Assembly (NCBI GenBank): GCA_000166095.1
Contig: CP002278.1
Location: forward strand, 150,001 to 182,000
Reading direction: 5' to 3'
DNA from: Methanothermus fervidus DSM 2088
GTDB taxonomy: Archaea; Methanobacteriota; Methanobacteria; DSM-2088; Methanothermaceae
Length of the DNA stretch: 32,000 nt
The position numbers and the translations under genes are program-made. Below, piece after piece: positions 1,676 through 15,231 of the stretch (position 1 is its first letter; the number at the start of each line of letters is the position of its first letter). The notes under the pieces are model-generated. The model saw nothing but the letters and a program-made list of their open reading frames with translations. It had not been told where the DNA came from and did not search any database.

Positions 1676-2364
1676 ATATAAAGCGGAAATTCACCTTTAT
1701 GTAATGCTGTGCCTACTAATATTTTTTTTATTCCGAAATTTTTTATTTTTGGAACATCTTTGAGTGTTATACCTCCTCCTAAAATCAATTTATCCTTTAA
1801 ATCTTTAAATATTTCTATAATATTTTCATTAATACCCTTCTCTGTACCTACTCTACTAATATCTAACAATATTATTTCGGAAGATATACCAAGATCTAAA
1901 AGCTTATCTCTAAAATCAATCAGGGAAATATCTAAATTTTTTGAATATAATTTATCATCCTTAATGTCTACACTAACAACAATTCTACTTGTAGGGAATT
2001 TTGAAACAATTTTTTCTAGTTCTTCAAAACTTTCTAAAGTTTCTGTAGCTACTATCACTTGCCTTGAAAAATTTAAAAGAAATTTAAATGTTTTAAAATC
2101 GTTGACACCAAAATCAAGCATTGTTGGAATAATATAATTTATCTTCTTTGCAATCTCTAGATTATTGCCAGTTCTCTCTATTCCATTTAAATCTGCAATA
2201 TATATTCGTCTAGCTCCCTGTCTTCTTAATGATAATGCAATCTCTATAGGATCCGGCGATCTTGAATAAATGGTTTTTAATGGAGTATATGTTTCTCTTT
2301 TTCCAGATTTGCCAGCTACTGCAATTCCATCTTTAATATCTAAGACAGGTATTACTTCTATCAT
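1672..2364 (-). CDS. HisA/HisF-related (beta/alpha)8-barrel protein, archaeal paralog of unknown function
   Basis: N-terminal VIPVLDIKDG, mid-protein VVSVDIKDD and C-terminal LILGGGIT phosphate-binding-like motifs resemble HisA/HisF. The start forms an ATGA overlap (2361-2364) with the upstream gene stop. Confidence 0.75.
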   Translation of the reverse strand: MIEVIPVLDIKDGIAVAGKSGKRETYTPLKTIYSRSPDPIEIALSLRRQGARRIYIADLNGIERTGNNLEIAKKINYIIPTMLDFGVNDFKTFKFLLNFSRQVIVATETLESFEELEKIVSKFPTSRIVVSVDIKDDKLYSKNLDISLIDFRDKLLDLGISSEIILLDISRVGTEKGINENIIEIFKDLKDKLILGGGITLKDVPKIKNFGIKKILVGTALHKGEFPLYI

Positions 2365-2702
2365 TTTTGAACCAATATGAGCTTTCCAGTTCTAGGATCT
2401 TTGTATACTGTACCCAGTTCAGCATATCCCTGTCCACTACCTTTAGATACCTCAGGAGTCTGATTCAGCTCTTTTCCCTGTTTAACTTCAATACTTTTCT
2501 TTACAGCTTCCATTAATTCTCTTTTTTCTTGTAGACTCATTTTTGCAAAAACAAGGCTTTGCATGTTCCATGCCATGATGAAGAATACAGCGAATGCCAT
2601 TGCAAGCACAAACATGCAATCAACAAAATTTATTGCTCCACTAAGTGGATCTTCTTCATGGTGATAATCGCTCAATCTCCTTCTCCCTCTCCTCCTCAAC
2701 AT
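2361..2702 (-). CDS. ExbD/TolR-like single-pass membrane protein (DUF2149-like)
   Basis: 113 aa with a basic N-terminus (MLRRRGRRR), then one TM helix containing an Asp (GAINFVDCMFVLAMAFAVFFI), then a soluble tail. The ATG at 2702 is preceded by GGAGGTGAT with about 5 nt spacing. The gene overlaps the ExbB-like gene by 47 nt. Confidence 0.65.
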   Translation of the reverse strand: MLRRRGRRRLSDYHHEEDPLSGAINFVDCMFVLAMAFAVFFIMAWNMQSLVFAKMSLQEKRELMEAVKKSIEVKQGKELNQTPEVSKGSGQGYAELGTVYKDPRTGKLILVQK

Positions 2703-3339
2703 TCTCCATCACCTCCAATATAGCCTCAGCCAGAGTTTCCAAGTTAACCAGATATTCCTCAAACCATCTTTTCCTAACCTTTGATACAAAGAAAGAGATT
2801 GCACTTGAAGCAAGTCCAAGTATTGCTGCATCAAAAGCAACTAAGAAGTGATTTGCTAGCTGAGTTATGTCTCCGGCTCCCAAAGCAACTAATCCAGGAC
2901 CTATTGGAATTAAAGTTCCGAGGAGTCCTACCTGTGGACCAAGCCTTGTTATTGAATCTGTTATTTCAACAGATTTCATGGCTTTCAGTTCTTCTCCTTC
3001 AACATATCTCCTTGCAAGTGCTTCTCTTGTCCTTGAATCTAAGTCCTCTGTGTTTGCAATATCTGTTAATATTTCTTTTTGCCTCTCTGGGAGCTTTGAA
3101 TTATTTATTATCTCTATTATCTCCTTTGGATCCCCTGGATTTGAGATGTTGTATATGGCTTCCTTTATTTCATCTACATCAACTCTAACCCTTCCAACAT
3201 ATTCAGCAATCAATCCTCCAAGTGCAACTACACTATAAGCAACAAATGCCAGCAATGTTACTATTGCTGGGATTAGGAGGCTTTGTGAAACTACATGCAT
3301 AATTCCTTGGAGTGCTTCTGATCCTGGGACTGCTGGCAA
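2656..3339 (-). CDS. MotA/TolQ/ExbB-family proton channel protein
   Basis: It has an N-terminal TM segment, a soluble middle region, and a C-terminal pair of TM segments carrying LGPQVGLLGTLIPIGPG, which resembles the ExbB/TolQ GLLGT motif. The TTG start at 3339 is preceded by GAGGTGAT lying inside the end of the upstream gene. Confidence 0.8.
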   Translation of the reverse strand: MPAVPGSEALQGIMHVVSQSLLIPAIVTLLAFVAYSVVALGGLIAEYVGRVRVDVDEIKEAIYNISNPGDPKEIIEIINNSKLPERQKEILTDIANTEDLDSRTREALARRYVEGEELKAMKSVEITDSITRLGPQVGLLGTLIPIGPGLVALGAGDITQLANHFLVAFDAAILGLASSAISFFVSKVRKRWFEEYLVNLETLAEAILEVMENVEEEREKEIERLSP

Positions 3340-3343
3340 TTTA

Positions 3344-4054
3344 TCACCTCACAAAAACGCTTTTTTTCTTGTAATAATACCCTCCCACTATTAGTAGGGC
3401 AAAGAGTGCTAATGCAGTACTTAATAAAATATGTGGTGCAGGAACATTTACTGGAGAGAATTTACTACTTGCTAAGGCACTAATATTCGGAATCAAAATA
3501 GTTGCAATCAAGAAATAAAGTCCAACAAATAACATAAAATTCCCTAAGATTATGGGATATGGTTTATTCAAAGCATCTACAATTACTTTTGAAAACAAAT
3601 AAAACACTGCTATAAACACGGATAAAAGTATTGCAGAATACTTTCCTAATAGTAAAGATGAAACACCCACCATTGGAGCTGCTAATATTATTGCAGCTAA
3701 TACTGCACCAAAACAACATGGACATGGTGCTACCATTGCTAAACATGTCATCTGCGCGGTATTTTTCTTTTTCTGTTTCCATTCATGTAATGTATGAATG
3801 CCTGCTGCTATTAAAATTGCGGCCATCAGAAGAGTTATATAAACTATGTATTTGTTAAGTGTTGGGTATATGTTCCCTATTGCTTTCCCTAGAATCCAAA
3901 TTAATAAATAAAGACCTACTCCATAACCAATTATTATACCTGCTGCATATCGACGTCTTAACCCAGCAAATCCTATTGCTAACCCTATTTTTGCACCAAA
4001 TATTAAAAGAACAGATATAATTCCTAACTCCCATGCTATAGTAATAATATTCAT
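3344..4054 (-). CDS. polytopic membrane protein (DUF2162-like predicted transporter) with HxxH and CPCPCC motifs
   Basis: About 7 hydrophobic segments by eye. Motifs are HTLHEW and CLAMVAPCPCCFG. I prefer the ATG at 4054 because GGAGGA lies 6-8 nt upstream; the ORF track begins at the TTG at 4069. Confidence 0.7.
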   Translation of the reverse strand: MNIITIAWELGIISVLLIFGAKIGLAIGFAGLRRRYAAGIIIGYGVGLYLLIWILGKAIGNIYPTLNKYIVYITLLMAAILIAAGIHTLHEWKQKKKNTAQMTCLAMVAPCPCCFGAVLAAIILAAPMVGVSSLLLGKYSAILLSVFIAVFYLFSKVIVDALNKPYPIILGNFMLFVGLYFLIATILIPNISALASSKFSPVNVPAPHILLSTALALFALLIVGGYYYKKKSVFVR

Positions 4055-4099
4055 AAAGATATCCTCCAAAATAGTAATAATCTAGTAATCTATATTATT

Positions 4100-4160
4100 T
4101 TTCTTTATTTCTTTACTTTATATTAACTTTATATATTTTTTAACTTTAACTTTAAGTCCA
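4100..4160 (-). promoter_or_regulatory. candidate promoter/operator region of the DUF2162-ExbB-ExbD-HisAF operon
   Basis: On the minus strand this reads AAAGTTAAAGTTAAAAAATATATAAAGTTAATATAAAG. It contains a TATA-like AATATATA (about 4128-4140) flanked by three TAAAGTT copies, 50-100 nt upstream of the ATG at 4054. Confidence 0.3.
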
Positions 4161-4194
4161 TTTTCAATCTAGTAAAAATAATAAACAAAAAAAT

Positions 4195-4584
4195 CTAGGG
4201 AGCGCCGCCTGCTCCTCCAAGGTTTTTACCTGTTTTTACATCTATGTATATTTCACCAACTTGTTTTCCATTTTTGATCACTGGAACAACATAAACTGGT
4301 TTTCCATCAATGTAAACAATTTTTGGAGATCCTGGGGATGCTCCAGGTTCCTCTATGTATTTACTTGCTATATTTTTTGCATCTTCTGTTGATACATGAG
4401 TTTTATTAGCGTTAGTATCTTTTGATGTTGTATTTTGAATTTTTTCTGTTTTTGTAATATTATTTTGACTCATACTATTTTTTGCTACAGCCACTTGTGA
4501 TTTATGTCCCTGTAGGAAATATCCTGCACCAATTGCGCCAACTACAAATATGCAAAGAATAAAAATTAACGCTTTAGAGCGCAT
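4195..4584 (-). CDS. small exported or membrane-anchored protein with a PepSY-like C-terminal domain
   Basis: N-terminal signal or anchor sequence (ALIFILCIFVVGAIGAGYF). The C-terminus AKNIASKYIEEPG...KPVYVVPVIKNGKQVGEIYIDVKTGKNLG resembles a PepSY fold pattern. I prefer the ATG at 4584 because GGGGTGA lies 5 nt upstream. Confidence 0.55.
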   Translation of the reverse strand: MRSKALIFILCIFVVGAIGAGYFLQGHKSQVAVAKNSMSQNNITKTEKIQNTTSKDTNANKTHVSTEDAKNIASKYIEEPGASPGSPKIVYIDGKPVYVVPVIKNGKQVGEIYIDVKTGKNLGGAGGAP

Positions 4585-4617
4585 GTTTTTCACCCCTTTC
4601 CTTTTTTACTAAAAGTT

Positions 4618-6669: not shown

Positions 6670-6744
6670 GCTCCGGTGGTGTAGTCCGGCCAAGCATCTC
6701 AGCCTCTCGAGCTGAGGACCCGGGTTCAAATCCCGGCCGGAGCA
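6670..6744 (+). tRNA. tRNA-Glu (anticodon CUC)
   Basis: Hand-folded cloverleaf: acceptor GCTCCGG/CCGGAGC, anticodon stem TCAGC/GCTGA with loop CTCTCGA, T arm CCGGG-TTCAAAT-CCCGG, discriminator A. It is 75 nt and no CCA is encoded. Confidence 0.9.
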
Positions 6745-6750
6745 TTAAAT

Positions 6751-7380
6751 CTATTCAGAGTAATTTATCACAACAACGCACATATATGAAAATTTCCTTT
6801 CTGCAGCCTCTTTTAATGATATTTTCGTAATTTTTTCATCTGGATAGCTAAGACGCTCACATATTATTATCTCTTTATCCCCACTAATTCCATTATTCAA
6901 CAAAAATTTGGCTAAATCATTTACGTCTTTAGAGGGCAAAACCATGATTGGTTTGTCATCGTTTAAAAATTTAAGAAGCTTTTTATAATCTTTTCTTCCA
7001 TGAAGAGTTAATAGATTTACATTATCCCATGGCATTTTGAGTTTAGCAGCGCATAACTGTATAGAACTTATACCAGGAATAACTTCCAGTTCTACATTTT
7101 TATATTTAGACAATAATTTTTTAACAGGCTTTAAAACTCCTGAAAATCCAGGATCTCCAGTTGATAATATACAGACGTCATTATTACGAGCTAGTTTTAC
7201 AGAATATTCCAACATTTTATTCATGTTTTTGGCATTTAATACAATTTTTCTTGTTGCCTGTGGAAACAAATCTAATGCTCTTTTACTACCAACTAATATA
7301 TCAACCGTATTTGCAATTTCTTCAGCTATAGGTGTTAAAAAATCTTTTGAACCTGGGCCAATTCCTACAATATAAAGCAT
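6751..7380 (-). CDS. cbiE: cobalt-precorrin-7 (C5)-methyltransferase / precorrin-6Y methylase CbiE-type
   Basis: MLYIVGIGPGSKDFLT...VDILVGSKRALDLF is typical of the CbiE subfamily of tetrapyrrole methylases. Length is about 209 aa from the ATG at 7380; the ORF track extends 16 codons further to 7428. Confidence 0.8.
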   Translation of the reverse strand: MLYIVGIGPGSKDFLTPIAEEIANTVDILVGSKRALDLFPQATRKIVLNAKNMNKMLEYSVKLARNNDVCILSTGDPGFSGVLKPVKKLLSKYKNVELEVIPGISSIQLCAAKLKMPWDNVNLLTLHGRKDYKKLLKFLNDDKPIMVLPSKDVNDLAKFLLNNGISGDKEIIICERLSYPDEKITKISLKEAAERKFSYMCVVVINYSE

Positions 7381-7483
7381 TTTTATCCCCAACAAAATTT
7401 TTAATGTTATATTTTTATCTTCAAACACAAAATTTTTTGAATATTGAAATTATTTTACTTAAACTTTTTCAGGAGGTCAAAAA

Positions 7484-8699: not shown

Positions 8700-8773
8700 T
8701 GCCCTGACCGGGATTTGAACCCGGGTAACGGGATCCGCAGTCCCGCGTGATATCCAGGCTACACTATCAGGGC
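8700..8773 (-). tRNA. tRNA-Arg (anticodon GCG)
   Basis: The reverse complement folds as acceptor GCCCTGA/TCAGGGC, anticodon stem CGGGA/TCCCG with loop CTGCGGA, and T arm CCGGG-TTCAAAT-CCCGG, with discriminator A. It is 74 nt. Confidence 0.85.
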
Positions 8774-8879: not shown

Positions 8880-10790
8880 TTAAACTTTTTGTACTTTTGC
8901 ATTACATATCTCTTTTAAAATAGGTATACATGATACTCCTAAATATATTCCTGAGACGCTTGTATCATAGATGTAAAGTTCAATACCTTCTTTTTTAATG
9001 TTTTTTGCTAAGTTTACCATTTCTTTTTCAATGTCATCTGTCAGTGGAACATTTGCTCTACCATCTGTTATCATAAATGCTTTTACTTTTAATGATTCTT
9101 CTTTCATCTTTTCTCTTTTAGATAATGAAATAAGTTGTTGTAATGCGGAAGATAATGGTGTTCTACCACCAGTGGGGGCTCGTTCAATTTCATCTACAAT
9201 TTGCCAATAATTTTTTGTAGGAGGTACTACTATTTCTGATTTAAAGCCTTTGGCGAGTATAAATGCCATTTTAGATCTTTTTGTGTATCCATCTTCAATG
9301 AGTTTTTCTGCAATACCTTTAGCAATTCTTATTCTTTTCTTTACAGCCATGCTTCCACTAGAATCCAATATAATTACCCAAAGGGTAGGGGCTTTCACAC
9401 GTCTAACTCTTATTCTGATATCATCTTTTTCAAATTTAACTGGAAGTTTTCTTTCCCTAAGCATTGCATGTATTATGGAATTATATAAGTCAATGTCATT
9501 TGCAGATTCATCTTTATTTGAGGATAAGGGTATATGAGCTACTGGTATCCCTTTTGGCTGATTTATAGTTGTCATTGTAATGTCTCTTGAAGACCTATGC
9601 GCAGAACCACTGAATTTTATCTTTTTTTTAGAATCTATCTCTGGAACTTCTGTCTTTAGAGGTGGAAAAAAAGTGTCATCAAACCTCCTACTACCGAAAT
9701 CTTCACGATCAGAACTTCTATTCAATTTCTGTTTTTTACTACTTCTTATCCTGCTTCGAAAAAATTTTGTCTTAGGTAAAGATTTCCCACCTTCTTTTCT
9801 TCTTTGGAAAGGCTTATCTTTTAGTCTGTGTTTTAATGTTAGTTCCATTGCTTTTTCAATGTCTTCCATAGAAACTTTTTTTCTGCCGTCAAGAGCAGAA
9901 ATTGACTTAGCTGTCTTTATAGTTGCTATCTCAGCCCTATTTGTTTTTATTCCTAATTTAATTATTGTTTCTGCAAGTAATTCTAAAAGATCTTCATCAA
10001 CTTTAACTTTTGGTAATAATTCTCTTGCTTTGACAATTTTTTTTGTTAGCTCTTCTTCCTCTTTTTTGTATTTTTCATAAAATTCTACAGGGTCTTTTTG
10101 GAATTCTTCAGTCCTTCTAACAATTTCAATTCTCTCCTCTGGATTCATAGGTGCAGATATTTCAACACACAGACCAAATCTATCTAATATTTGCGGTCTT
10201 AATTCTCCTTCCTCTGGGTTCATGCTTCCTACTAATATAAATCTTGCAGGATGTCTAAATGAAATTCCTTCCCTCTCTATTGTGTTCCATCCCATTGCAG
10301 CTGCATCTAAAAGAGAATCTGCAATATAATCATCAAGTAAATTGACTTCATCTATATATAGAACACCTCTATTTGCTTCCGCCATTAATCCAGGATTTAA
10401 AGCTTTCTTACCTTCCTTTAAAAACTTTGTAACGTCTATAGTACCTATCAGTCTATCTATAGTTATACTTAGTGGTAAGTTAACAAAGCTCATTTTTCTT
10501 TTTTCTACCGGTAATTTTTCATTGGATGAAAAGCGTTCGTAACAATCATCACACATTTCAAGCGGATTGTTTGGGTTGCATCTAAATTCACAATCTGCAA
10601 CTACTTCAATCTCAGGTAGTATGTTTGTTAATGATCTAACTAGCGTAGATTTACCTGTTCCCTTATCACCTTTTAGTAAAACACCACCTATCAACGGATT
10701 TACAGCAACACATAAAAGAGCTGTCTTAGCTTCTTCTTGACCAACAACAGCGGAAAATGGGAAACTTAATTGCCTTTCACAATATTCCAT
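8880..10790 (-). CDS. chelatase ATPase subunit, fused ChlI/BchI-like AAA+ domain and ChlD/CobT-like vWA domain
   Basis: N-terminus FPFSAVVGQEEAK, Walker A GDKGTGKST, Walker B VLYIDEVNLL, Cys cluster CEFRCNP...CDDC, and a C-terminal vWA MIDAS motif ILDSSGSM. It overlaps the cobN stop by 25 nt. Confidence 0.85.
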   Translation of the reverse strand: MEYCERQLSFPFSAVVGQEEAKTALLCVAVNPLIGGVLLKGDKGTGKSTLVRSLTNILPEIEVVADCEFRCNPNNPLEMCDDCYERFSSNEKLPVEKRKMSFVNLPLSITIDRLIGTIDVTKFLKEGKKALNPGLMAEANRGVLYIDEVNLLDDYIADSLLDAAAMGWNTIEREGISFRHPARFILVGSMNPEEGELRPQILDRFGLCVEISAPMNPEERIEIVRRTEEFQKDPVEFYEKYKKEEEELTKKIVKARELLPKVKVDEDLLELLAETIIKLGIKTNRAEIATIKTAKSISALDGRKKVSMEDIEKAMELTLKHRLKDKPFQRRKEGGKSLPKTKFFRSRIRSSKKQKLNRSSDREDFGSRRFDDTFFPPLKTEVPEIDSKKKIKFSGSAHRSSRDITMTTINQPKGIPVAHIPLSSNKDESANDIDLYNSIIHAMLRERKLPVKFEKDDIRIRVRRVKAPTLWVIILDSSGSMAVKKRIRIAKGIAEKLIEDGYTKRSKMAFILAKGFKSEIVVPPTKNYWQIVDEIERAPTGGRTPLSSALQQLISLSKREKMKEESLKVKAFMITDGRANVPLTDDIEKEMVNLAKNIKKEGIELYIYDTSVSGIYLGVSCIPILKEICNAKVQKV

Positions 10791-13700
10791 ACTTTTTCCA
10801 CCTTTTTCATATTATTCTTCCAATTATCAACATCATTAATAGAATAAATATTAATTATTCCACCTTGTATTTCTCCTTTTCCAACTTCATCTTCTAATGT
10901 GCTTTCAATTTCCATATATAGATGTTTTAAACTTCTAATTGTTTTTTTATCGGCTTTCCACAACTTTCTTTCATAAGCCTCTAATAATCTCCTTGTAATC
11001 TCCTCTAATGCGTAAGGATTATGTTTTTTAAACCATTCTTTCATTTTGGAATATTTTTTAAATATGTTGTCAAATACCCAGTCATTAACTAATCCAGTTG
11101 TTGACTGCCAGCCATAAAGATGGAGAATCTTTTTTGAAAATTCATTTGCTCCTCTATACCCATGCTTTTTCATGTTTTTGATCCACTCATCATTCAATAA
11201 TTTACTCCTCACTATTCTTTCTATTTCTTTTTTCACATTGATAACCTTTATGTTTGAAATATCGCGCGTATCAACTTGTAATGTTTCTGTTTTCTTTCCT
11301 CTCAATGTATCTACAGCTGCTTTAAATCCTCCCTGGAATGCGAAATATCCACAGCAATTTGTTAACTCATGTTCATCACTTACATGATTCCTTGTTATTA
11401 CATCAACTTTTCTTAAATTAAGTGTCAATGATTCTGGAGCTTTAACACCAAATCTATCTTTTGAATAGGCATGATCACTCCATTTAATCCATATTTTTCC
11501 AAGTTCTTCCTTGTTTTTCCAGGCTGATGATTCAACAGCATAATTTACGCCAGCTCCATATGCTCCTGGCGGGGTTGAAAATATTCTATATTTTGCAAAT
11601 TCTTTAGCTCTTTTTACACCCATTCTTGAAAGTTCCTTTAAATTTTCTATATAATGTTTTTTAACATAGTTTTTATGAAGAGGTTCTTTGGCTTTAATAA
11701 CCTTTTTCACGGCTTCATCAATTATTTCTATGTAATTTGGCAGTGTATCACGTGTTATACCACTTATCCTCACTAAAACATCAATTCTTGGTCTCTTCAA
11801 TTTATTTAGAGGTATTACCTCAACTCCAACAACTTTATCATTTTTCCATTTAGGTTTTACACCCAATAAATATAATATTTGAGATAGCTGTTCTCCATCG
11901 GCTTTATATCCATCTATACTCCATAGAACCTGACCAACAGTTTCAGGGAACTTTCCATATTTGTTTTTATAAAATTTCAATAATTTTTCAGCTGTTTTAA
12001 CGCCAATTTTCCATGCAGCTTTTGTTGGAATTTCTGTAGGATCTACCGCATAGAAATTTCTGCCTGTAGGTATTATTTCATATTTACCGCGTGCCAAAGA
12101 TCCTGAAGGTCCTGGTTCAACAAATTCAAAATTCAATGCTTTTATAAGTCCTTTAATTTCTTTTTTACATTTTTTGATTCTATTAGATAAGTCAGCAGCT
12201 TTATTCAATAAATTTCTAATTTTCTTTTCATTTTTAACTTGAAAACCTTCTTCTTTAAATTTTTTCACAATTTCAATTTTTTTGTTTGATATAATGTCTT
12301 TCAGTAATTTTTTACCTATATCACAAACTTTCTCTGAAATTTCTTTGTTCATAACACCATTTGTAAAATCTAATGGTTTATTAATGATGTTATTATAATC
12401 AAAACCTAAAGATTCTAATAATACTTTATTTATAGATGTGGTAAGAGAAGTATCATGTGACATAGCTGTAAAAACATATTCACTGAGAATTTTTGGATCT
12501 TCAGGAGGAGTCGCAAATATATGTAATCCAACATTAATTTCTGAGTTTCTAATAAATTCAAGATATTCATGTAATTCTTCAATAACTTTCTTTTCTTCTT
12601 TGCTTTTTATTTTGATATTTTCTTTCTTTGCTTTATCTAATATATTTTCATAAATAATCCTTTTTCTTTTCTTGTCACCTAAATTTCTAGCCTTAACATA
12701 TTGTTTGATCAAAGAATCAAGTTCCTCTAAGTTTTCAGAATATTTCATAGGCGGGTGTAAATGATCTACTATAGTAGCATAACTTCTTCTTTTGGCTATT
12801 ACTCCTTCCATAGGATTAGACACTATGTAAACATACACATGTGGAATTTCGCCAATACTTGCCTCAGGAACACAAGCAGGAGAAAGACCTACACCTTTAC
12901 CTGGTCGAAATTCTAATGATCCATGAGTTCCAAAGTGAATTAAAATGTCATAATTCTTTGATATCCATTTGTAAAAAGCCCACCAATGATGTGGTGGAAC
13001 AATATTGGGGTCATGTAAAATTTTGCATGTTTTTCCATCACATTTTGAGCCTTCACAACCAAATTTTGGCTGTGTAGTAAGCAACACATTGCCAAACTTT
13101 ATACCTGGAATAACAAATTTATTGTTGTAGATCATTCCTCCTTTGTTATTTTTAAGTACTTCATCAGGACTTCCCCAATTTTTTATTATTTTCTTCCTTA
13201 GTTGCTTTGGAAGTTCTTTAAACCAATTAATGTATTCTTTACCGACAAAATCCACAGCTCCACCATTACTAACAATATCTTCAACACTTGTCCATCTGAA
13301 TTCACTTATAGCCCGCTTATTTAAAACCATTTTAATTAATTCTTCTCCATTTTCAGGAATATTTTTGACTTTATATCCATTCTTTTTTAGATGTCTTAAA
13401 ACTTTAACTACACTCTCAGGAACATCTAATCCCATTCCAACTCCAATATTTCCCTCTAAACCTTTGCATGGAGGACTTATTAATACTATGGCTATCTTTA
13501 TATCTTTTCTTGGTTTTTTCCTCAACTTTATCCAATTTTTTACCTTCTTAACAAAATATTTAATATTGGGCTCATATCCTTGTCCTTTATTCTTTCTTCC
13601 ACCAATAAAAATAGGTTCAATAGCTCCTTTTGTTTCTGGAAGGATAACACCATATACCTGTGTTAAATAATCTACACCATTTTCGTTTTTCCATTCTTCA

Positions 13701-14464
13701 ATACTTTGATACCAAGACCTTAGTGGTGAAAATATTGGAACATTTAATTTCTTTACATCAAAATCTTTAATACCAAAAGAAATTAGTGATATTATTGCAT
13801 CAACTATGGGTCTATTTTTCTCAAATAAAAATTTTTTAATAACTTCCATTTTTTCCATGCCAATGCCAGTTACAGGGTCCTTTGTATATGTAAAGATAGG
13901 TATTACTCCCAATCCTTCATTTTCCAAATATTTAATAAGCATGTTTATTTGCGTTAGATCATCATATAACCATTCATTTCTCCAAAAGATAATTCCAACA
14001 AGTGGTCTTTTACCATATTTTTCCACGTATTTTTCTAAATATTTCTTTTTAGATGTCGTAACTCCTAACTCTGGATGATAGATTCCAGAGATTAATGTTT
14101 TCTTTGGCTCATCATATTTTATTTCTTTACCACTTAAATTTATGAGAAATTTAACAAGGTTTCTCAAATTTTCTTTGCCACCATAAATATAGTATTTTCT
14201 GGCCTTGATTAACACTTCTTTATCCACGTTGTTTAATTCTTCTAATGGATAAGAAATAATTTTTGCATCTATATTTTTTAAAACATTTATACATTCATCC
14301 GGCAAACTAGAAGTAAAAACAAAAATTACTTCAGATTTTTTTATTGTGTTAATTTTGTCAACGCATTCTCTGTCTGTTAATACTAACCCATCTATCTTTT
14401 CTTCTTTGAAAATTTCTTTAAGTACTTGTATAGGCCTTGCATCATAACATATAAATGATATCAT
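10766..14464 (-). CDS. cobN: CobN/ChlH-family large chelatase subunit
   Basis: About 1232 aa. It carries the CobN-type signature HFGTHGSLEFRPGKG and ...DVITRNHVSDEHELTNCCGYFAFQGGF. I prefer the ATG at 14464; the ORF track starts at the GTG at 14476. Confidence 0.9.
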   Translation of the reverse strand: MISFICYDARPIQVLKEIFKEEKIDGLVLTDRECVDKINTIKKSEVIFVFTSSLPDECINVLKNIDAKIISYPLEELNNVDKEVLIKARKYYIYGGKENLRNLVKFLINLSGKEIKYDEPKKTLISGIYHPELGVTTSKKKYLEKYVEKYGKRPLVGIIFWRNEWLYDDLTQINMLIKYLENEGLGVIPIFTYTKDPVTGIGMEKMEVIKKFLFEKNRPIVDAIISLISFGIKDFDVKKLNVPIFSPLRSWYQSIEEWKNENGVDYLTQVYGVILPETKGAIEPIFIGGRKNKGQGYEPNIKYFVKKVKNWIKLRKKPRKDIKIAIVLISPPCKGLEGNIGVGMGLDVPESVVKVLRHLKKNGYKVKNIPENGEELIKMVLNKRAISEFRWTSVEDIVSNGGAVDFVGKEYINWFKELPKQLRKKIIKNWGSPDEVLKNNKGGMIYNNKFVIPGIKFGNVLLTTQPKFGCEGSKCDGKTCKILHDPNIVPPHHWWAFYKWISKNYDILIHFGTHGSLEFRPGKGVGLSPACVPEASIGEIPHVYVYIVSNPMEGVIAKRRSYATIVDHLHPPMKYSENLEELDSLIKQYVKARNLGDKKRKRIIYENILDKAKKENIKIKSKEEKKVIEELHEYLEFIRNSEINVGLHIFATPPEDPKILSEYVFTAMSHDTSLTTSINKVLLESLGFDYNNIINKPLDFTNGVMNKEISEKVCDIGKKLLKDIISNKKIEIVKKFKEEGFQVKNEKKIRNLLNKAADLSNRIKKCKKEIKGLIKALNFEFVEPGPSGSLARGKYEIIPTGRNFYAVDPTEIPTKAAWKIGVKTAEKLLKFYKNKYGKFPETVGQVLWSIDGYKADGEQLSQILYLLGVKPKWKNDKVVGVEVIPLNKLKRPRIDVLVRISGITRDTLPNYIEIIDEAVKKVIKAKEPLHKNYVKKHYIENLKELSRMGVKRAKEFAKYRIFSTPPGAYGAGVNYAVESSAWKNKEELGKIWIKWSDHAYSKDRFGVKAPESLTLNLRKVDVITRNHVSDEHELTNCCGYFAFQGGFKAAVDTLRGKKTETLQVDTRDISNIKVINVKKEIERIVRSKLLNDEWIKNMKKHGYRGANEFSKKILHLYGWQSTTGLVNDWVFDNIFKKYSKMKEWFKKHNPYALEEITRRLLEAYERKLWKADKKTIRSLKHLYMEIESTLEDEVGKGEIQGGIINIYSINDVDNWKNNMKKVEKVWNIVKGN

Positions 14465-14476
14465 AGTTACACACAA

Positions 14477-14538: not shown

Positions 14539-15231
14539 ATGAAAGGAAAATTTATAGGAGTAGGTGTGGGACCAGGAGATCCAGAACTCATGACAGTTAA
14601 AGCAGTTAAAATAATTAAGTCTGTTCCAGTAATATGTGCTCCAAGATCTTCACCTCATAGGCCAAGTATTGCATTAAAAATAATTAAAAATATATTAAAA
14701 AAACGTAATGACAAATATGAAGTCATAGAACCTGTATTTCCTATGATTGAAAATAAAGAAAATCTAAAAAAATATTGGGATCATGCAGCGGAAATTATTT
14801 CTGAACATCTTTCTGAAGGTAAAGATGTTGCATTTGTAACTATTGGTGATCCATCTCTTTATAGTACTTTCACTTACATATGTAGGAGAATTAAGAAAAA
14901 ATTTCAAGTGGAAATGATACCAGGTATATGTTCATTTACAAGTTGTGCTGCTAGTGCATGCCTTCCATTAGCTGAAAAAGATGAAACTTTGCTTATATTA
15001 CCAAATGTAAATAAAAAAATAAAAAAAATTATAGGTTATGTTGATACTGTTGTAGTGATGAAAACATCCCGGCACGGTAATTTATTGAAAAAAATTGTTG
15101 AAGAAGATCCTAGAAAGAAAAAGATAATATCTGTCGTGAATTGTAGCATGAAAAATGAAAAAATTGTTGAAGGTTTTGTAGAGGATGGTGGATATTTATG
15201 TACAACACTTATTAAGTTTTTAAGTGAATAA
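14539..15231 (+). CDS. cbiL: cobalt-factor II / precorrin-2 C20-methyltransferase (CbiL-type)
   Basis: [16 protein letters not shown], an N-terminal class III tetrapyrrole methylase motif. The 230 aa length and overall pattern fit CbiL/CobI; the subfamily call is less certain than the family call. Confidence 0.8.

Follow-up and report, generated by a model that had tools for sequence, protein, structure and literature searches.

A three-gene MotA/ExbB-like, DUF2149 and DUF2162 module of Methanothermus fervidus as a putative proton-driven motor for capturing metals or tetrapyrroles at the cell surface

TonB and TolA attach to ExbBD and TolQR through a single transmembrane (TM) helix. Another described system is the hmu operon of Bacteroidota, which is regulated by iron and heme and whose published HmuS protein is membrane-anchored, periplasmic and ATP-independent and frees iron outside the cytoplasm. 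Since HmuS-dependent dechelation works in lysed-cell membrane fractions with NADH, HmuS catalysis itself may not need a proton gradient. HmuTUV of Porphyromonas gingivalis has been proposed to move heme or iron across the inner membrane, and a model published in EMBO J in 2025 takes HmuU/HmuV to be the power source of the TonB-dependent receptor HmuR. The published annotation of P. gingivalis HmuU/HmuV agrees with a pair made of a MotA-like and a DUF2149 protein, and our reading of the literature found no biochemical or genetic test for any DUF2149, HmuU/V or DUF2162 family protein.

We analyzed a stretch of 32,000 nucleotides of the M. fervidus DSM 2088 chromosome (hereafter the window), in which three translationally coupled minus-strand genes lie at the coordinates given in a preliminary description, with the start codons of all three backed by ortholog alignments (Table 1). 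The Shine-Dalgarno sequence of gene 1 lies 7 nt 5' of its ATG, the TTG of gene 2 follows 4 nt past the gene 1 stop with GAGGTGA sitting within the last codons of gene 1, and gene 3, whose ATG is preceded by GGAGGTGAT, overlaps gene 2 by 47 nt. A fourth, HisA/HisF-related gene (1672-2364) overlaps the DUF2149 stop codon (ATGA), and the ortholog of this gene does not follow the regulation of the module. On the far side, the leader is a putative promoter region judging from its letters; one copy of the word ATTATTAC, which word statistics show to be enriched in promoters of the module in other methanogens, lies at 4074-4081, and the gene upstream of the trio encodes a small PepSY protein. No exported CobN was found adjoining the window trio, which leaves two options: a client gene at another site, or a trio acting alone. 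The sole CobN in the window is of the cytoplasmic type and belongs to a canonical cytoplasmic set (8880-14476) of a 1236-aa CobN and a 636-aa ChlI/ChlD fusion. The larger window ORFs scanned include no TonB or TolA, in agreement with the preliminary description, and the window ORFs scanned hold neither HmuY hemophore or HmuR TonB-dependent receptor domains nor motility genes.

Table 1. Positions of the module genes, key codons and leader within the window
Feature	Position	Strand	Description
DUF2162 gene (gene 1)	3344-4054	minus	ATG start; 236 aa; polytopic membrane protein, ~7 TM helices
C111-P112-C113-C114 codons	3713-3724	minus	invariant intramembrane Cys motif of DUF2162
MotA/TolQ/ExbB-family gene (gene 2)	2656-3339	minus	TTG start; 227 aa; 3 TM, ExbB-like topology
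T142 codon	2914-2916	minus	TM2 channel-lining Thr, equivalent to ExbB T148/TolQ T145
D170-A171-A172 codons	2824-2832	minus	TM3 of gene 2 protein
DUF2149 gene (gene 3)	2361-2702	minus	ATG start; 113 aa; one TM; homolog of Bacteroidota HmuV
D28 codon	2619-2621	minus	TM aspartate of DUF2149
Leader/putative promoter region of trio	4055-4194	minus	AT-rich; TATA-like AAATATATAAAG; Shine-Dalgarno GGAGGAT

The gene 2 product truly belongs to the MotA/TolQ/ExbB family, and its model lies closest to ExbB. It contains three hydrophobic segments and the motif LGPQVGLLGTLIPIG, matches MotA_ExbB (PF01618) over residues 102-199 at 31.6 bits against a gathering score of 22.9, and matches a PDB MotA sequence with an E-value of 0.001. 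Its scores fall far under every cutoff of the NCBIfam equivalogs TolQ, ExbB and MotA, making it a family member and not an ortholog of any of the three. The AlphaFold model (pLDDT 76.8) shows an ExbB/TolQ-type fold that comprises TM1, a helical domain in the cytoplasm, TM2 and TM3 as a hairpin and a cytoplasmic helix at the C-terminus; when it was searched against the PDB with Foldseek, the best 18 matches were all ExbB chains (E 2e-4; TM 0.55-0.65 at full length, ~215-235 columns), followed by MotA, TolQ and PomA. With the E. coli pore threonines (ExbB T148/T181, TolQ T145/T178) as reference, T142 aligns with the first of each pair and is conserved in 100% of the 84 family members scanned, archaeal and bacterial alike. 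Of these 84, 83 have D170, which is not universal, being A in Aureibacter and T in Trichlorobacter lovleyi. A172 takes the place of a Thr that aligns with the second threonine and is present in the other 83 of 84 scanned homologs; by visual alignment T. lovleyi has Val at this position, with Thr at the two preceding ones. The motif AFDAAILGL is shared by the window protein and a metagenome copy (P0005) that is independent of it and 99% identical, and the T172A change could alter or weaken proton conduction in the window protein. We propose that the gene 2 product is the pentameric proton-channel (A) subunit of a motor.

Gene 3 matches DUF2149 (PF09919), a family of about 555 clusters at 50% identity, with 76.6 bits against a cutoff of 27.1. 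Its product combines a basic cytoplasmic N-terminus with a single TM segment that carries D28 within NFVDCMFVL, and thus shares with ExbD, TolR and MotB an N-in single TM with a conserved Asp near the cytoplasmic end; D28, N25 and G97 are invariant in 82 diverse family representatives. In hhalign comparisons D28 falls on ExbD D25 (P = 0.0011) and on TolR D23 (P = 0.0051), in alignments that span only 18-21 TM-helix residues at a low hhalign probability of 7-21%, and hmmsearch against the PDB also aligns the DUF2149 TM with TolR and ExbD TM peptides. None of the residues after the TM align to ExbD or TolR. The extracytoplasmic tail is short, with ~65 residues and the conserved motif LGTVYxDPxTGKL (GxVYxDPxTGKL family-wide), and contains neither the ~80-residue folded periplasmic domain of ExbD/TolR nor the OmpA-like peptidoglycan-binding domain of MotB. 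The window protein does not match Pfam ExbD (PF02472) at E <= 0.1, and 3 of the 82 DUF2149 members touch this profile, the best at E 0.003. DUF2149 is thus no member of the ExbD/TolR/MotB family: its likeness to ExbD is confined to the TM helix, the extracytoplasmic part is unrelated and the Pfam ExbD match is absent. We propose that DUF2149 serves as the B subunit of the motor.

Gene 1 matches DUF2162 (PF09930) along the entire profile (233 bits, positions 1-223 of 223), and its product carries all invariant columns of a 73-sequence DUF2162 alignment. The AlphaFold model (pLDDT 73) predicts an all-helical protein with ~7 TM helices, the last followed by a basic tail (…VGGYYYKKK), and the positive-inside rule suggests an N-out, C-in orientation. 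A search of solved structures with this model returned nothing significant (best E 0.26), known transporters included. C111, C113 and C114, which form a P-C-P-C-C motif, are invariant in 73 archaeal homologs, and because the bacterial T. lovleyi copy reads P-C-P-V-C, the conserved core is C-P-x-C, a candidate soft-metal or redox site.

Measured against these results, the preliminary description had correctly guessed the DUF2162 and DUF2149 profiles; the MotA_ExbB match and the conservation of the TM Asp bear it out, and its expected ExbD match did not materialize. Its label of an ExbB/ExbD-like module holds for a MotA/ExbB-type protein with an N-in, single-TM Asp partner and fails for the family assignment of that partner, and its term "Cys-rich" was an overstatement for a DUF2162 protein that has 4 Cys in total, three of them invariant.

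Comparison with other genomes placed the DUF2149 gene directly downstream of the MotA-like gene in 77 of 80 loci, with the two overlapping in 94% of them. The pair is found in Methanobacteriales, Methanococcales, Bacteroidota (HmuU/HmuV), Gammaproteobacteria, Desulfuromonadota and Bacillota, and is not specific to archaea. The expected synteny was borne out, with the trio order kept across methanogens: CobN, DUF2162, MotA-like and DUF2149 genes follow one another in M. wolfeii, M. marburgensis, Methanobacterium, two MAGs and M. maripaludis. An exported CobN lies directly upstream of the trio in most methanogen loci, an opposite-strand gene intervenes between CobN and trio in two (L005/L006), and the chromosomal position of the trio among housekeeping genes, beside CobN, is kept across two archaeal orders. 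The gammaproteobacterial order is CobN, MotA-like, DUF2149 with no polytopic subunit, and DUF2162 is likewise missing from Bacillota modules; Aureibacter has HmuR-HmuY-CobN-HmuT-MotA-DUF2149, and the T. lovleyi cluster contains the trio plus CobN, along with exbB-exbD-tonB as a separate set. The Bacillota pair sits among SLH/Shr-like-HID surface proteins, and because its partner there is not CobN, "chelatase driver" is too narrow a description of the whole MotA-like/DUF2149 family. Further neighbors are CbiM in Methanobacterium, nicotianamine-synthase-like genes in Methanothermobacter, FecCD/binding-protein genes near the module in M. maripaludis, corrinoid salvage and BtuCD-like genes downstream of it in L042, and TonB-dependent receptors in Aureibacter, T. 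lovleyi and L085.

The partner in these relatives is a full-length CobN/ChlH homolog (PF02514). Nearly all module-adjacent full-length CobNs possess a signal peptide and a C-terminal TM; two CobNs beside ChlI/ChlD genes possess neither. At 79 of 81 loci the gene directly upstream of the MotA-like gene codes for a protein with a TM helix at its C-terminal end, as against 103 of 681 proteins in the background set (Fisher P = 2e-53), a comparison to be read alongside the possibility that Methanobacteriales surface proteins in general carry C-terminal TM anchors. In the published proteome of M. marburgensis (Methanothermobacter), the MotA-like ortholog MTBMA_c10530 (P0012/ADL58647) is up about 35-fold under Ni limitation, MTBMA c10540 is detected under Ni limitation only, and c10580 and CobN1 are up ~300-fold, with no change in any of them under Fe or H2/CO2 limitation; c10540 is equated with DUF2162, and c10520 with DUF2149, by gene order only. 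The M. marburgensis ortholog has also been flagged in print as a Ni-limitation-induced "Transporter", and cobalamin riboswitches precede the module operon in four proteobacterial loci (L042, L085, L048 and L090). The metal or corrinoid link suggested at the outset pointed in the right direction. Its companion statements need revision: the client described as unknown gives way to the exported, C-tail-anchored CobN-like protein that relatives place beside the trio (compare HmuS-T-U-V), and the claim that no experimental characterization exists gives way to the Ni induction of the M. marburgensis ortholog and the iron/heme regulation of the bacterial hmu operon.

Because an exported CobN-type partner accompanies the module elsewhere and nickel starvation induces it in another methanogen, we consider it on balance probable, if by no wide measure, that the trio is a proton-motive-force (PMF)-driven motor powering extracytoplasmic metal or tetrapyrrole capture, probably nickel scavenging in methanogens. 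A PMF-driven motor with the same core as HmuU/HmuV, and with a 5:2 stoichiometry presumed from solved relatives, would be built from the MotA/ExbB-like protein as a probable pentamer and from DUF2149 as a probable dimer that places Asp28 in the pore. DUF2162 would be a 7-TM accessory subunit, presumably with a permease role, whose C-P-x-C site most likely hands the captured metal ion inward and less likely acts as a redox relay. Beyond the cytoplasmic membrane ATP is lacking, and it is there that the motor would supply energy to surface proteins anchored by a C-terminal helix. Foremost among its clients would be an HmuS-type, exported CobN-like (de)chelatase of class I, to which it may be physically coupled, and the motor would then take the part that the ChlI/ChlD (CobS/T) AAA+ ATPase plays for cytoplasmic CobN/ChlH. 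The methanogen system probably serves high-affinity nickel (possibly Ni/Co) scavenging, and we infer that nickel is also the substrate in M. fervidus.

The persistence of the trio as a unit even without an adjacent CobN, both in the window and in L005/L006, raises the alternative of a self-contained importer in which DUF2162 is a Ni2+/Co2+ permease cycled directly by the MotA-like/DUF2149 motor with no CobN-like partner. The invariant intramembrane C-P-x-C, the translational coupling of the DUF2162 gene to the MotA-like gene and the published "Transporter" label are consistent with this, but we find it unlikely: Gammaproteobacteria, Bacillota and Bacteroidota run the pair without DUF2162, which argues that the core job of the motor is independent of this subunit, while the exported CobN directly upstream in most methanogen loci and the lack of a structural match between DUF2162 and known transporters also speak against it. 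Moreover, we know of no 5:2 motor that drives a permease directly. If the trio carried whole metallo-tetrapyrroles (corrinoid, heme or F430-like) through the cytoplasmic membrane, this would accord with the proposal for P. gingivalis HmuTUV, with the B12 riboswitches and corrinoid salvage genes of proteobacterial modules and with the Shr-like heme-binding surface proteins of Bacillota modules. We judge it distinctly improbable, given that a BtuCD-like ABC importer adjoins the gammaproteobacterial module and FecCD/binding-protein genes lie near that of M. maripaludis, so that a separate importer is already present, and given that gammaproteobacterial modules have no polytopic subunit at all, that HmuS releases iron extracytoplasmically and that M. 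marburgensis responds to nickel ion supply.

A plain ExbBD/TolQR analogue, energizing an outer-layer transporter or envelope upkeep (pseudomurein/S-layer), would explain the predicted ExbB-like fold of the A subunit, the TonB-dependent receptors adjoining three of the modules and the powering of HmuR in the EMBO J model. Such a role is very improbable in light of the Ni, B12 and Fe regulation, which is ill-suited to envelope housekeeping, and of the lack of TonB/TolA among the larger window ORFs scanned. To our knowledge, archaea and the Bacillota lineages in this comparison have neither an outer membrane nor TonB-dependent receptors, and both keep the pair. The MotA-like/DUF2149 pair is not merely a Ton energizer, being present in archaea and Bacillota and, in T. 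lovleyi, encoded beside a dedicated exbB-exbD-tonB set. The MotA-like protein also gives a weak PADLOC match to ZorA (E 2e-4, 18 bits) through the shared MotA/ExbB domain only, which could hint that a MotA/MotB-like pair forms the base of a Zorya-type anti-phage defence system or of a motility stator here. However, the match of this 227-aa protein covers only positions 41-146 of a 505-position profile, the other two trio proteins match nothing, and the locus has no long tailed ZorA, no ZorB, ZorC or ZorD and no effector genes. The conserved chromosomal position among housekeeping genes next to CobN in two archaeal orders and the lack of motility genes in the window also oppose both roles, which are effectively refuted and have a negligible chance of being correct.

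Returning to the reading of the trio as a motor for surface capture, a bolder version, which we regard as possible yet doubtful, would make MotA-like/DUF2149 a separate class of 5:2 proton motors whose output passes via the C-terminal membrane helix of exported proteins. With CobN-like partners, PMF would replace the AAA+ ATPase of cytoplasmic class I chelatases and mechanically power metal extraction or insertion outside the cell, and the trio would be a methanogen nickel-scavenging machine with DUF2162 as the ion path. If true, this motor class would be common to archaea, Bacillota and double-membraned bacteria, the trio would be the missing high-affinity nickel-scavenging machine of methanogens, and the nickel may come from tetrapyrroles or from metallophores, for which the nicotianamine-synthase-like genes beside the Methanothermobacter module would be a pointer.

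Among known systems, ExbB-ExbD-TonB and TolQ-TolR-TolA resemble the module in their 3-TM A subunit with a conserved TM2 Thr and in an N-in, single-TM B subunit that has an Asp of the essential type at an equivalent depth and is encoded directly downstream with overlap. They differ in the periplasmic domain of ExbD/TolR, which DUF2149 does not have, in the presence of TonB/TolA and in the position of the client helix, which is N-terminal in Ton/Tol and C-terminal in the candidate client here. The hosts of the module also include archaea and Bacillota, which are conventionally single-membraned. Structures of ExbBD and TolQR include the client TonB or TolA (PDB 9ddo, 9ddm and 9kpz), and the upstream-encoded protein here likewise ends in a single TM helix. 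With CobN-CobS-CobT and ChlH-ChlI-ChlD the module shares a full-length CobN/ChlH homolog as partner; in contrast to these systems, module-linked CobNs are exported and membrane-tethered with no AAA+ partner gene nearby, and the genes of a putative proton motor, which may substitute for the ATPase, occupy the place that ATPase genes would otherwise take.

Two bacterial systems come closer. In Hmu (P. gingivalis, B. thetaiotaomicron; Aureibacter pAT2, L089), HmuU belongs to the MotA-like subfamily (31% identity to the window protein in a tblastn search), HmuV belongs to DUF2149, and Aureibacter HmuU has an annotated DUF2149 gene downstream. The order of a large CobN-like protein, a polytopic membrane protein, a MotA-like and a DUF2149 protein is shared, as is regulation by metal starvation, and both HmuS, which works without ATP, and the methanogen partner CobNs are extracytoplasmic proteins with a signal peptide or N-terminal TM and a C-terminal TM. 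Hmu differs in that HmuT, which has no Pfam family, is unrelated to DUF2162 (hhalign P = 0.33 for the one Aureibacter HmuT tested), in its inducing signal of iron/heme versus nickel in the methanogen, and in HmuY/HmuR, whose absence from the window is expected without an outer membrane; the window also has no adjacent HmuS-like gene, which is present in M. marburgensis, M. wolfeii, Methanobacterium, MAGs and M. maripaludis. The T. lovleyi (Geobacter) plasmid pGLOV01 carries members of these three families in an identical order (DUF2162 215 bits, MotA_ExbB 40 bits, DUF2149 115 bits) and, like the methanogen modules, an exported, C-tail-anchored CobN adjoining the trio. This bacterial module differs in placing CobN after the trio and not before it, in its DUF2162 motif of PCPVC and in its position behind tandem cobalamin riboswitches and a TonB-dependent receptor, within a cobalamin-biosynthesis region of the plasmid.

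The trio is one ortholog of a widespread gene module. An open reading frame and Pfam check recovered all three minus-strand genes where the preliminary description had placed them, and a profile search matched each to its family (PF09930, PF01618 and PF09919; scores are tabulated). The tight coupling it had read at the gene junctions likewise held: the MotA-like gene begins with a TTG 4 nt past the stop of the DUF2162 gene, with GAGGTGA lying within the last codons of the latter, and the DUF2149 gene begins at an ATG with GGAGGTGAT ahead of it and overlaps the MotA-like gene by 47 nt. All three start codons were supported by ortholog alignments. The window DNA is AT-rich (31% GC) and the organism is placed in Methanobacteriales; no close sequenced relative was found, the best full-length homologs being only 50-60% identical.

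Coordinates of the trio and of other features in the window
Feature	Position	Strand	Evidence or remark
DUF2162 gene	3344-4054	minus	PF09930, 233 bits, full-length
MotA/TolQ/ExbB-family gene	2656-3339	minus	PF01618, 31.6 bits (cutoff 22.9)
DUF2149 gene	2361-2702	minus	PF09919, 76.6 bits
HisA/HisF-related gene	1672-2364	minus	TIGR00734, 236 bits; ATG overlaps DUF2149 stop (ATGA)
PepSY protein gene	4195-4593	minus	30 bits; N-terminal TM; directly upstream of trio
ChlI-AAA+/VWA (ChlI/ChlD-type) fusion gene	8880-10790	minus	636 aa; 25-nt overlap with CobN
Cytoplasmic CobN gene	10766-14476	minus	1236 aa; no signal peptide or TM
Tetrapyrrole methylase genes	6751-7428; 14539-15231		flank the chelatase set
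tRNA gene	6670-6744	plus	between glycolytic/GTPase and chelatase genes
tRNA gene	8700-8773	minus	between glycolytic/GTPase and chelatase genes

Judged by its sequence, the middle protein truly belongs to the MotA/TolQ/ExbB family, with a predicted 3-TM layout of the ExbB/TolQ type, and its earlier designation as MotA/TolQ/ExbB-like was borne out by a PF01618 score above the cutoff together with the ExbB-type fold of its model. The AlphaFold model (pLDDT 76.8) found its best PDB matches in ExbB chains, which took the top 18 places (E ~2e-4; TM-score 0.55-0.65 over the whole chain), followed by MotA, TolQ and PomA. Residue T142 corresponds to the pore-lining TM2 threonine of ExbB (T148) and TolQ (T145) and was invariant in 84 archaeal and bacterial MotA-like homologs. 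Profile comparison ruled out that the protein is an ortholog of ExbB, TolQ or MotA, and a role of the trio in Zorya defence was rejected after comparison with defence profiles.

The third gene had been credited with the architecture of ExbD/TolR/MotB, of which the basic cytoplasmic N-terminus, the single TM segment and its aspartate stood but membership of the ExbD family did not: the window protein had no match to the Pfam ExbD model, which only 3 of 82 relatives touched. The aspartate, D28, was invariant in 82 diverse representatives of the DUF2149 family (~555 clusters at 50% identity). When the family profile was compared with all PDB sequences, TM peptides of TolR and ExbD appeared in the top five with their aspartates in register, at E values of only 1-2. 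ExbD/TolR homologs sought for profile building in ~1.4 Mb of collected loci were not found, and single E. coli ExbD and TolR sequences were used in place of an ExbD profile; hhalign gave P = 0.0011 for ExbD and P = 0.0051 for TolR over 18-21 TM columns and no alignment to either protein beyond the TM helix. The hhalign probabilities are low because only this helix aligns, and with no match beyond it DUF2149 is ExbD-like in its working helix but a separate family.

DUF2162 is predicted to be a 7-TM helical protein (model pLDDT 73), and its model had no significant match among solved structures. To call it Cys-rich was an overstatement, since it has four cysteines only, three of them within an invariant P-C-P-C-C motif; the alignment also revealed invariant P-Y-P…G-N-x-M and P-N motifs. 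The one bacterial DUF2162 examined carries PCPVC at the cysteine motif, and the conserved core is therefore an intramembrane C-P-x-C. This core resembles the CPx metal site of P1B-type ATPases, a likeness that we treat as a lead only.

Scanning the DUF2149 alignment against one genome per GTDB species yielded 80 loci, which we annotated with home-built HMMs. In 77 of the 80 the gene directly upstream of DUF2149, and on its strand, was the MotA-like one, with an overlap in 94% of those; this pair is the invariant core of the module. Methanobacteriales and Methanococcales share the order CobN-like (1450-2100 aa), DUF2162, MotA-like, DUF2149, found in M. wolfeii, M. marburgensis, Methanobacterium, two MAGs and M. 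maripaludis, and Gammaproteobacteria have CobN-like (~1450 aa), MotA-like, DUF2149. Among Bacteroidota, whose pair was reached by tblastn against plasmids (a search for HmuV by cluster name among the deep-search representatives returned Methanosphaera and metagenome proteins instead), the Aureibacter hmu operon reads HmuR-HmuY-HmuS(CobN)-HmuT-HmuU(MotA-like)-HmuV(DUF2149), in agreement with publications on P. gingivalis and B. thetaiotaomicron; immediately 3' of the Aureibacter operon (locus L089, 10479-10513) is an Rfam DUF805b RNA motif (53 bits). Plasmid pGLOV01 of Trichlorobacter lovleyi encodes a TonB-dependent receptor, DUF2162, MotA-like, DUF2149 and CobN, then a separate canonical exbB-exbD-tonB set. 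In Bacillota (Syntrophomonadaceae, Pelotomaculum, Desulfotomaculaceae) the pair sits amid SLH-anchored surface proteins with Shr-like heme-binding HID domains, and no CobN was found beside it. The large flanking SLH proteins (L009, L019 and ~45 other Bacillota loci) carry HID, Fn3_assoc, Big_2 and weak Oxidored_molyb-like domains. A ~550-aa protein encoded just upstream of the Bacillota MotA-like gene, often overlapping its start by 4 nt, ends in a terminal TM helix and a conserved …GAG(R/K)(R/K)YxEY tail.

Nearly all full-length CobN-like neighbours of the pair begin with a signal peptide and end in a single TM helix and a basic tail, a topology seen in archaea, Gammaproteobacteria, T. lovleyi and Aureibacter, whereas both CobNs adjoining ChlI/ChlD AAA+ genes (in the window and at locus L028) have neither signal nor anchor. 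CobN topologies split by neighbour, so there are two settings, one cytoplasmic with an ATP motor and the other exported with a proton motor encoded alongside. The role of such cytoplasmic sets in methanogens is called unclear in the literature. The protein encoded just upstream of the MotA-like gene varies with lineage, being DUF2162, CobN, HmuT or the ~550-aa Bacillota surface protein. It bore a hydrophobic C-terminal helix in 79 of 81 loci, whereas among the other proteins of these loci 103 of 681 did (Fisher P = 2e-53). A TonB or TolA client joins its motor by one TM helix. PDB structures solved for the TonB-ExbBD and TolAQR complexes hold the client together with the motor, and by analogy the C-terminal helix of the upstream-encoded protein is a plausible counterpart of the client helix. 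A similar anchor on the FmdE-domain surface protein of Methanothermobacter suggests that C-tail anchoring may be a general style of that order. The regular expression for a C-terminal G-x-G-aromatic docking motif had been framed post hoc and fitted only 32 of 81, and the motif was dropped.

No exported CobN lies beside the window trio, whose upstream neighbour encodes a small membrane-anchored PepSY protein, and the remainder of the window consists of housekeeping genes; the client, if any, must therefore be encoded elsewhere in the genome. The PepSY gene was rejected as part of the module, having no homolog beside the pair in ~90 other loci. The HisA/HisF-related gene also comes after the trio in Methanothermobacter and in two MAGs, and was rejected as a fourth member because its M. 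marburgensis ortholog, MTBMA_c10510, is not Ni-induced and CbiM takes its place in Methanobacterium. The window MotA-like protein has Ala-Ala (AFDAAILGL; A171-A172, codons 2824-2829) where homologs carry (A/T)-Thr; A172 aligns with TM3 residues ExbB T181 and TolQ T178, and the 83 other homologs scanned all have Thr there. The same residues occur in P0005, an independent metagenome copy (99% identical), which makes them a trait of the lineage rather than an error of sequencing. The T. lovleyi protein has its Thr one or two positions earlier in TM3 by visual alignment, so there may be some latitude in this requirement. Apart from this substitution, the window proteins retain every residue that is invariant in the three families, from which it follows that selection acts on the genes.

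In Proteobacteria and Desulfuromonadota the operon has same-strand cobalamin riboswitches immediately upstream (L042, L085, L048; a tandem pair in T. lovleyi), and CobD/CbiB, BtuCD-like genes and an aminotransferase come after the module at L042. A search for riboswitches and known RNAs near archaeal modules found tRNAs only. The Bacteroidota hmu operon is published as strongly induced on iron or heme starvation. In the M. marburgensis proteome (Nature 2025, PMC12350162), nickel limitation raised MTBMA_c10530, a "Predicted transporter protein", from ~5e6 to ~2e8 and c10580 and CobN1 by ~300-fold, and c10540 was detected under nickel limitation only; none of the four changed on iron or H2/CO2 limitation. 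We identified c10530 as the MotA-like ortholog by UniProt name, gene order and the listing of Kaster et al.; the ortholog, P0012 (ADL58647.1), is 59% identical to the window protein and its UniProt name is exactly that of c10530. By gene order only, c10540 is DUF2162 and c10580 the FmdE-domain protein. The locus runs from the HisA/F-related gene (c10510) through DUF2149, MotA-like and DUF2162 to CobN in 604/849/195-aa pieces (c10550-10570), then a 964-aa exported FmdE-domain protein and nicotianamine-synthase-like genes. The CobN is intact (1643 aa) in a sister genome and fragmented also in M. wolfeii. Kaster et al. independently listed c10550-10570 (MTH673) as a CobN-like chelatase and put it forward as a possible F430 nickel chelatase. 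Its export signals speak against such a biosynthetic role in the cytoplasm. The F430 chelatase was reportedly later shown to be CfbA. Two nicotianamine-synthase-like genes and the C-tail-anchored 964-aa protein adjoin the module in L091 (1-9070; M. marburgensis CP001710) and L092. The neighbourhood looks like a nickel-starvation island.

Promoters of the module's FmdE-like, CobN and DUF2162 genes contained the word GTAATAA/TTATTAC at ~6-fold the density of the remaining intergenic DNA in those archaeal loci (21 occurrences over 2,990 bp, compared with 8 over 6,601 bp; Poisson P = 3e-10, for a word chosen post hoc and two loci from sister species). The word often forms an inverted pair (TTATTAC-N14-24-GTAATAA), often abutting the TATA box, with sites at L091 916-1062, 3958-4141 and 9071-9273 and in module promoters of L001, L003, L005 and L093 (M. 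maripaludis). The window has 8 copies of GTAATAAT where 3.2 are expected, three of the eight at the DUF2162 gene (4041-4048, 4074-4081 and 3371-3378); a simple inverted-repeat search of the trio promoter for a G/C-containing repeat found none. A nickel-responsive regulator may use the word as its operator.

The reading best supported by the observed family memberships, the fold, the invariant residues, the coupled genes, the partner topology and the regulation is a proton motor of the 5:2 type working on C-tail-anchored extracytoplasmic proteins. A MotA-like pentamer would surround a DUF2149 dimer whose Asp28 binds protons, and its output would pass by physical coupling to these proteins on the outer side of the cytoplasmic membrane. 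With a CobN-like partner, the motor would do the work done for cytoplasmic class I chelatases by their AAA+ ATPase, and DUF2162 would provide the inward route for the released metal, presumably nickel in methanogens. Against this reading count the published finding that HmuS-dependent dechelation runs in lysed-cell membrane fractions given NADH, and a literature in which we found no test of any MotA-like (HmuU), DUF2149 (HmuV) or DUF2162 family member. The driving of CobN in particular is weakened by the Bacillota partners, which are not CobN, and the inclusion of DUF2162 by its absence from several lineages with the pair and its lack of relationship to HmuT. It is hard to maintain, as has been assumed in print, that HmuU/HmuV do no more than power the TonB-dependent receptor HmuR. 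T. lovleyi maintains a dedicated ExbB-ExbD-TonB set beside the pair. The pair also occurs in archaea and Bacillota, which are conventionally single-membraned.

The gene families are already catalogued and the bacterial operon already named (hmu); we found no paper treating the archaeal trio as an HmuUV-type motor, discussing a split of exported and cytoplasmic CobNs between proton motor and ATPase, or linking the M. marburgensis nickel-limitation "Transporter" to the MotA-like family. The module bears on which system imports nickel in methanogens under limitation, where this "Transporter" is induced (PMC12350162). Nickel supply limits the enzymes of methanogenesis, so its acquisition machinery matters for controlling methane production, and the full four-gene module occurs in the genetically tractable M. 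maripaludis, making the model directly testable. ExbB/TolQ/MotA-type motors are, to our knowledge, understood in bacteria alone, mostly as reaching the outer membrane or the flagellar rotor. A relative conserved in both archaea and Bacillota that has a B subunit of its own, and neither TonB nor TolA, suggests a wider use of the motor principle. The module also bears on the purpose of HmuT, HmuU and HmuV and on why archaea carry so many CobN/HmuS homologs. HmuS is published as membrane-anchored and periplasm-facing, taking iron out of heme without ATP, and the module-linked CobNs share its topology in both the exported side and the membrane anchor.
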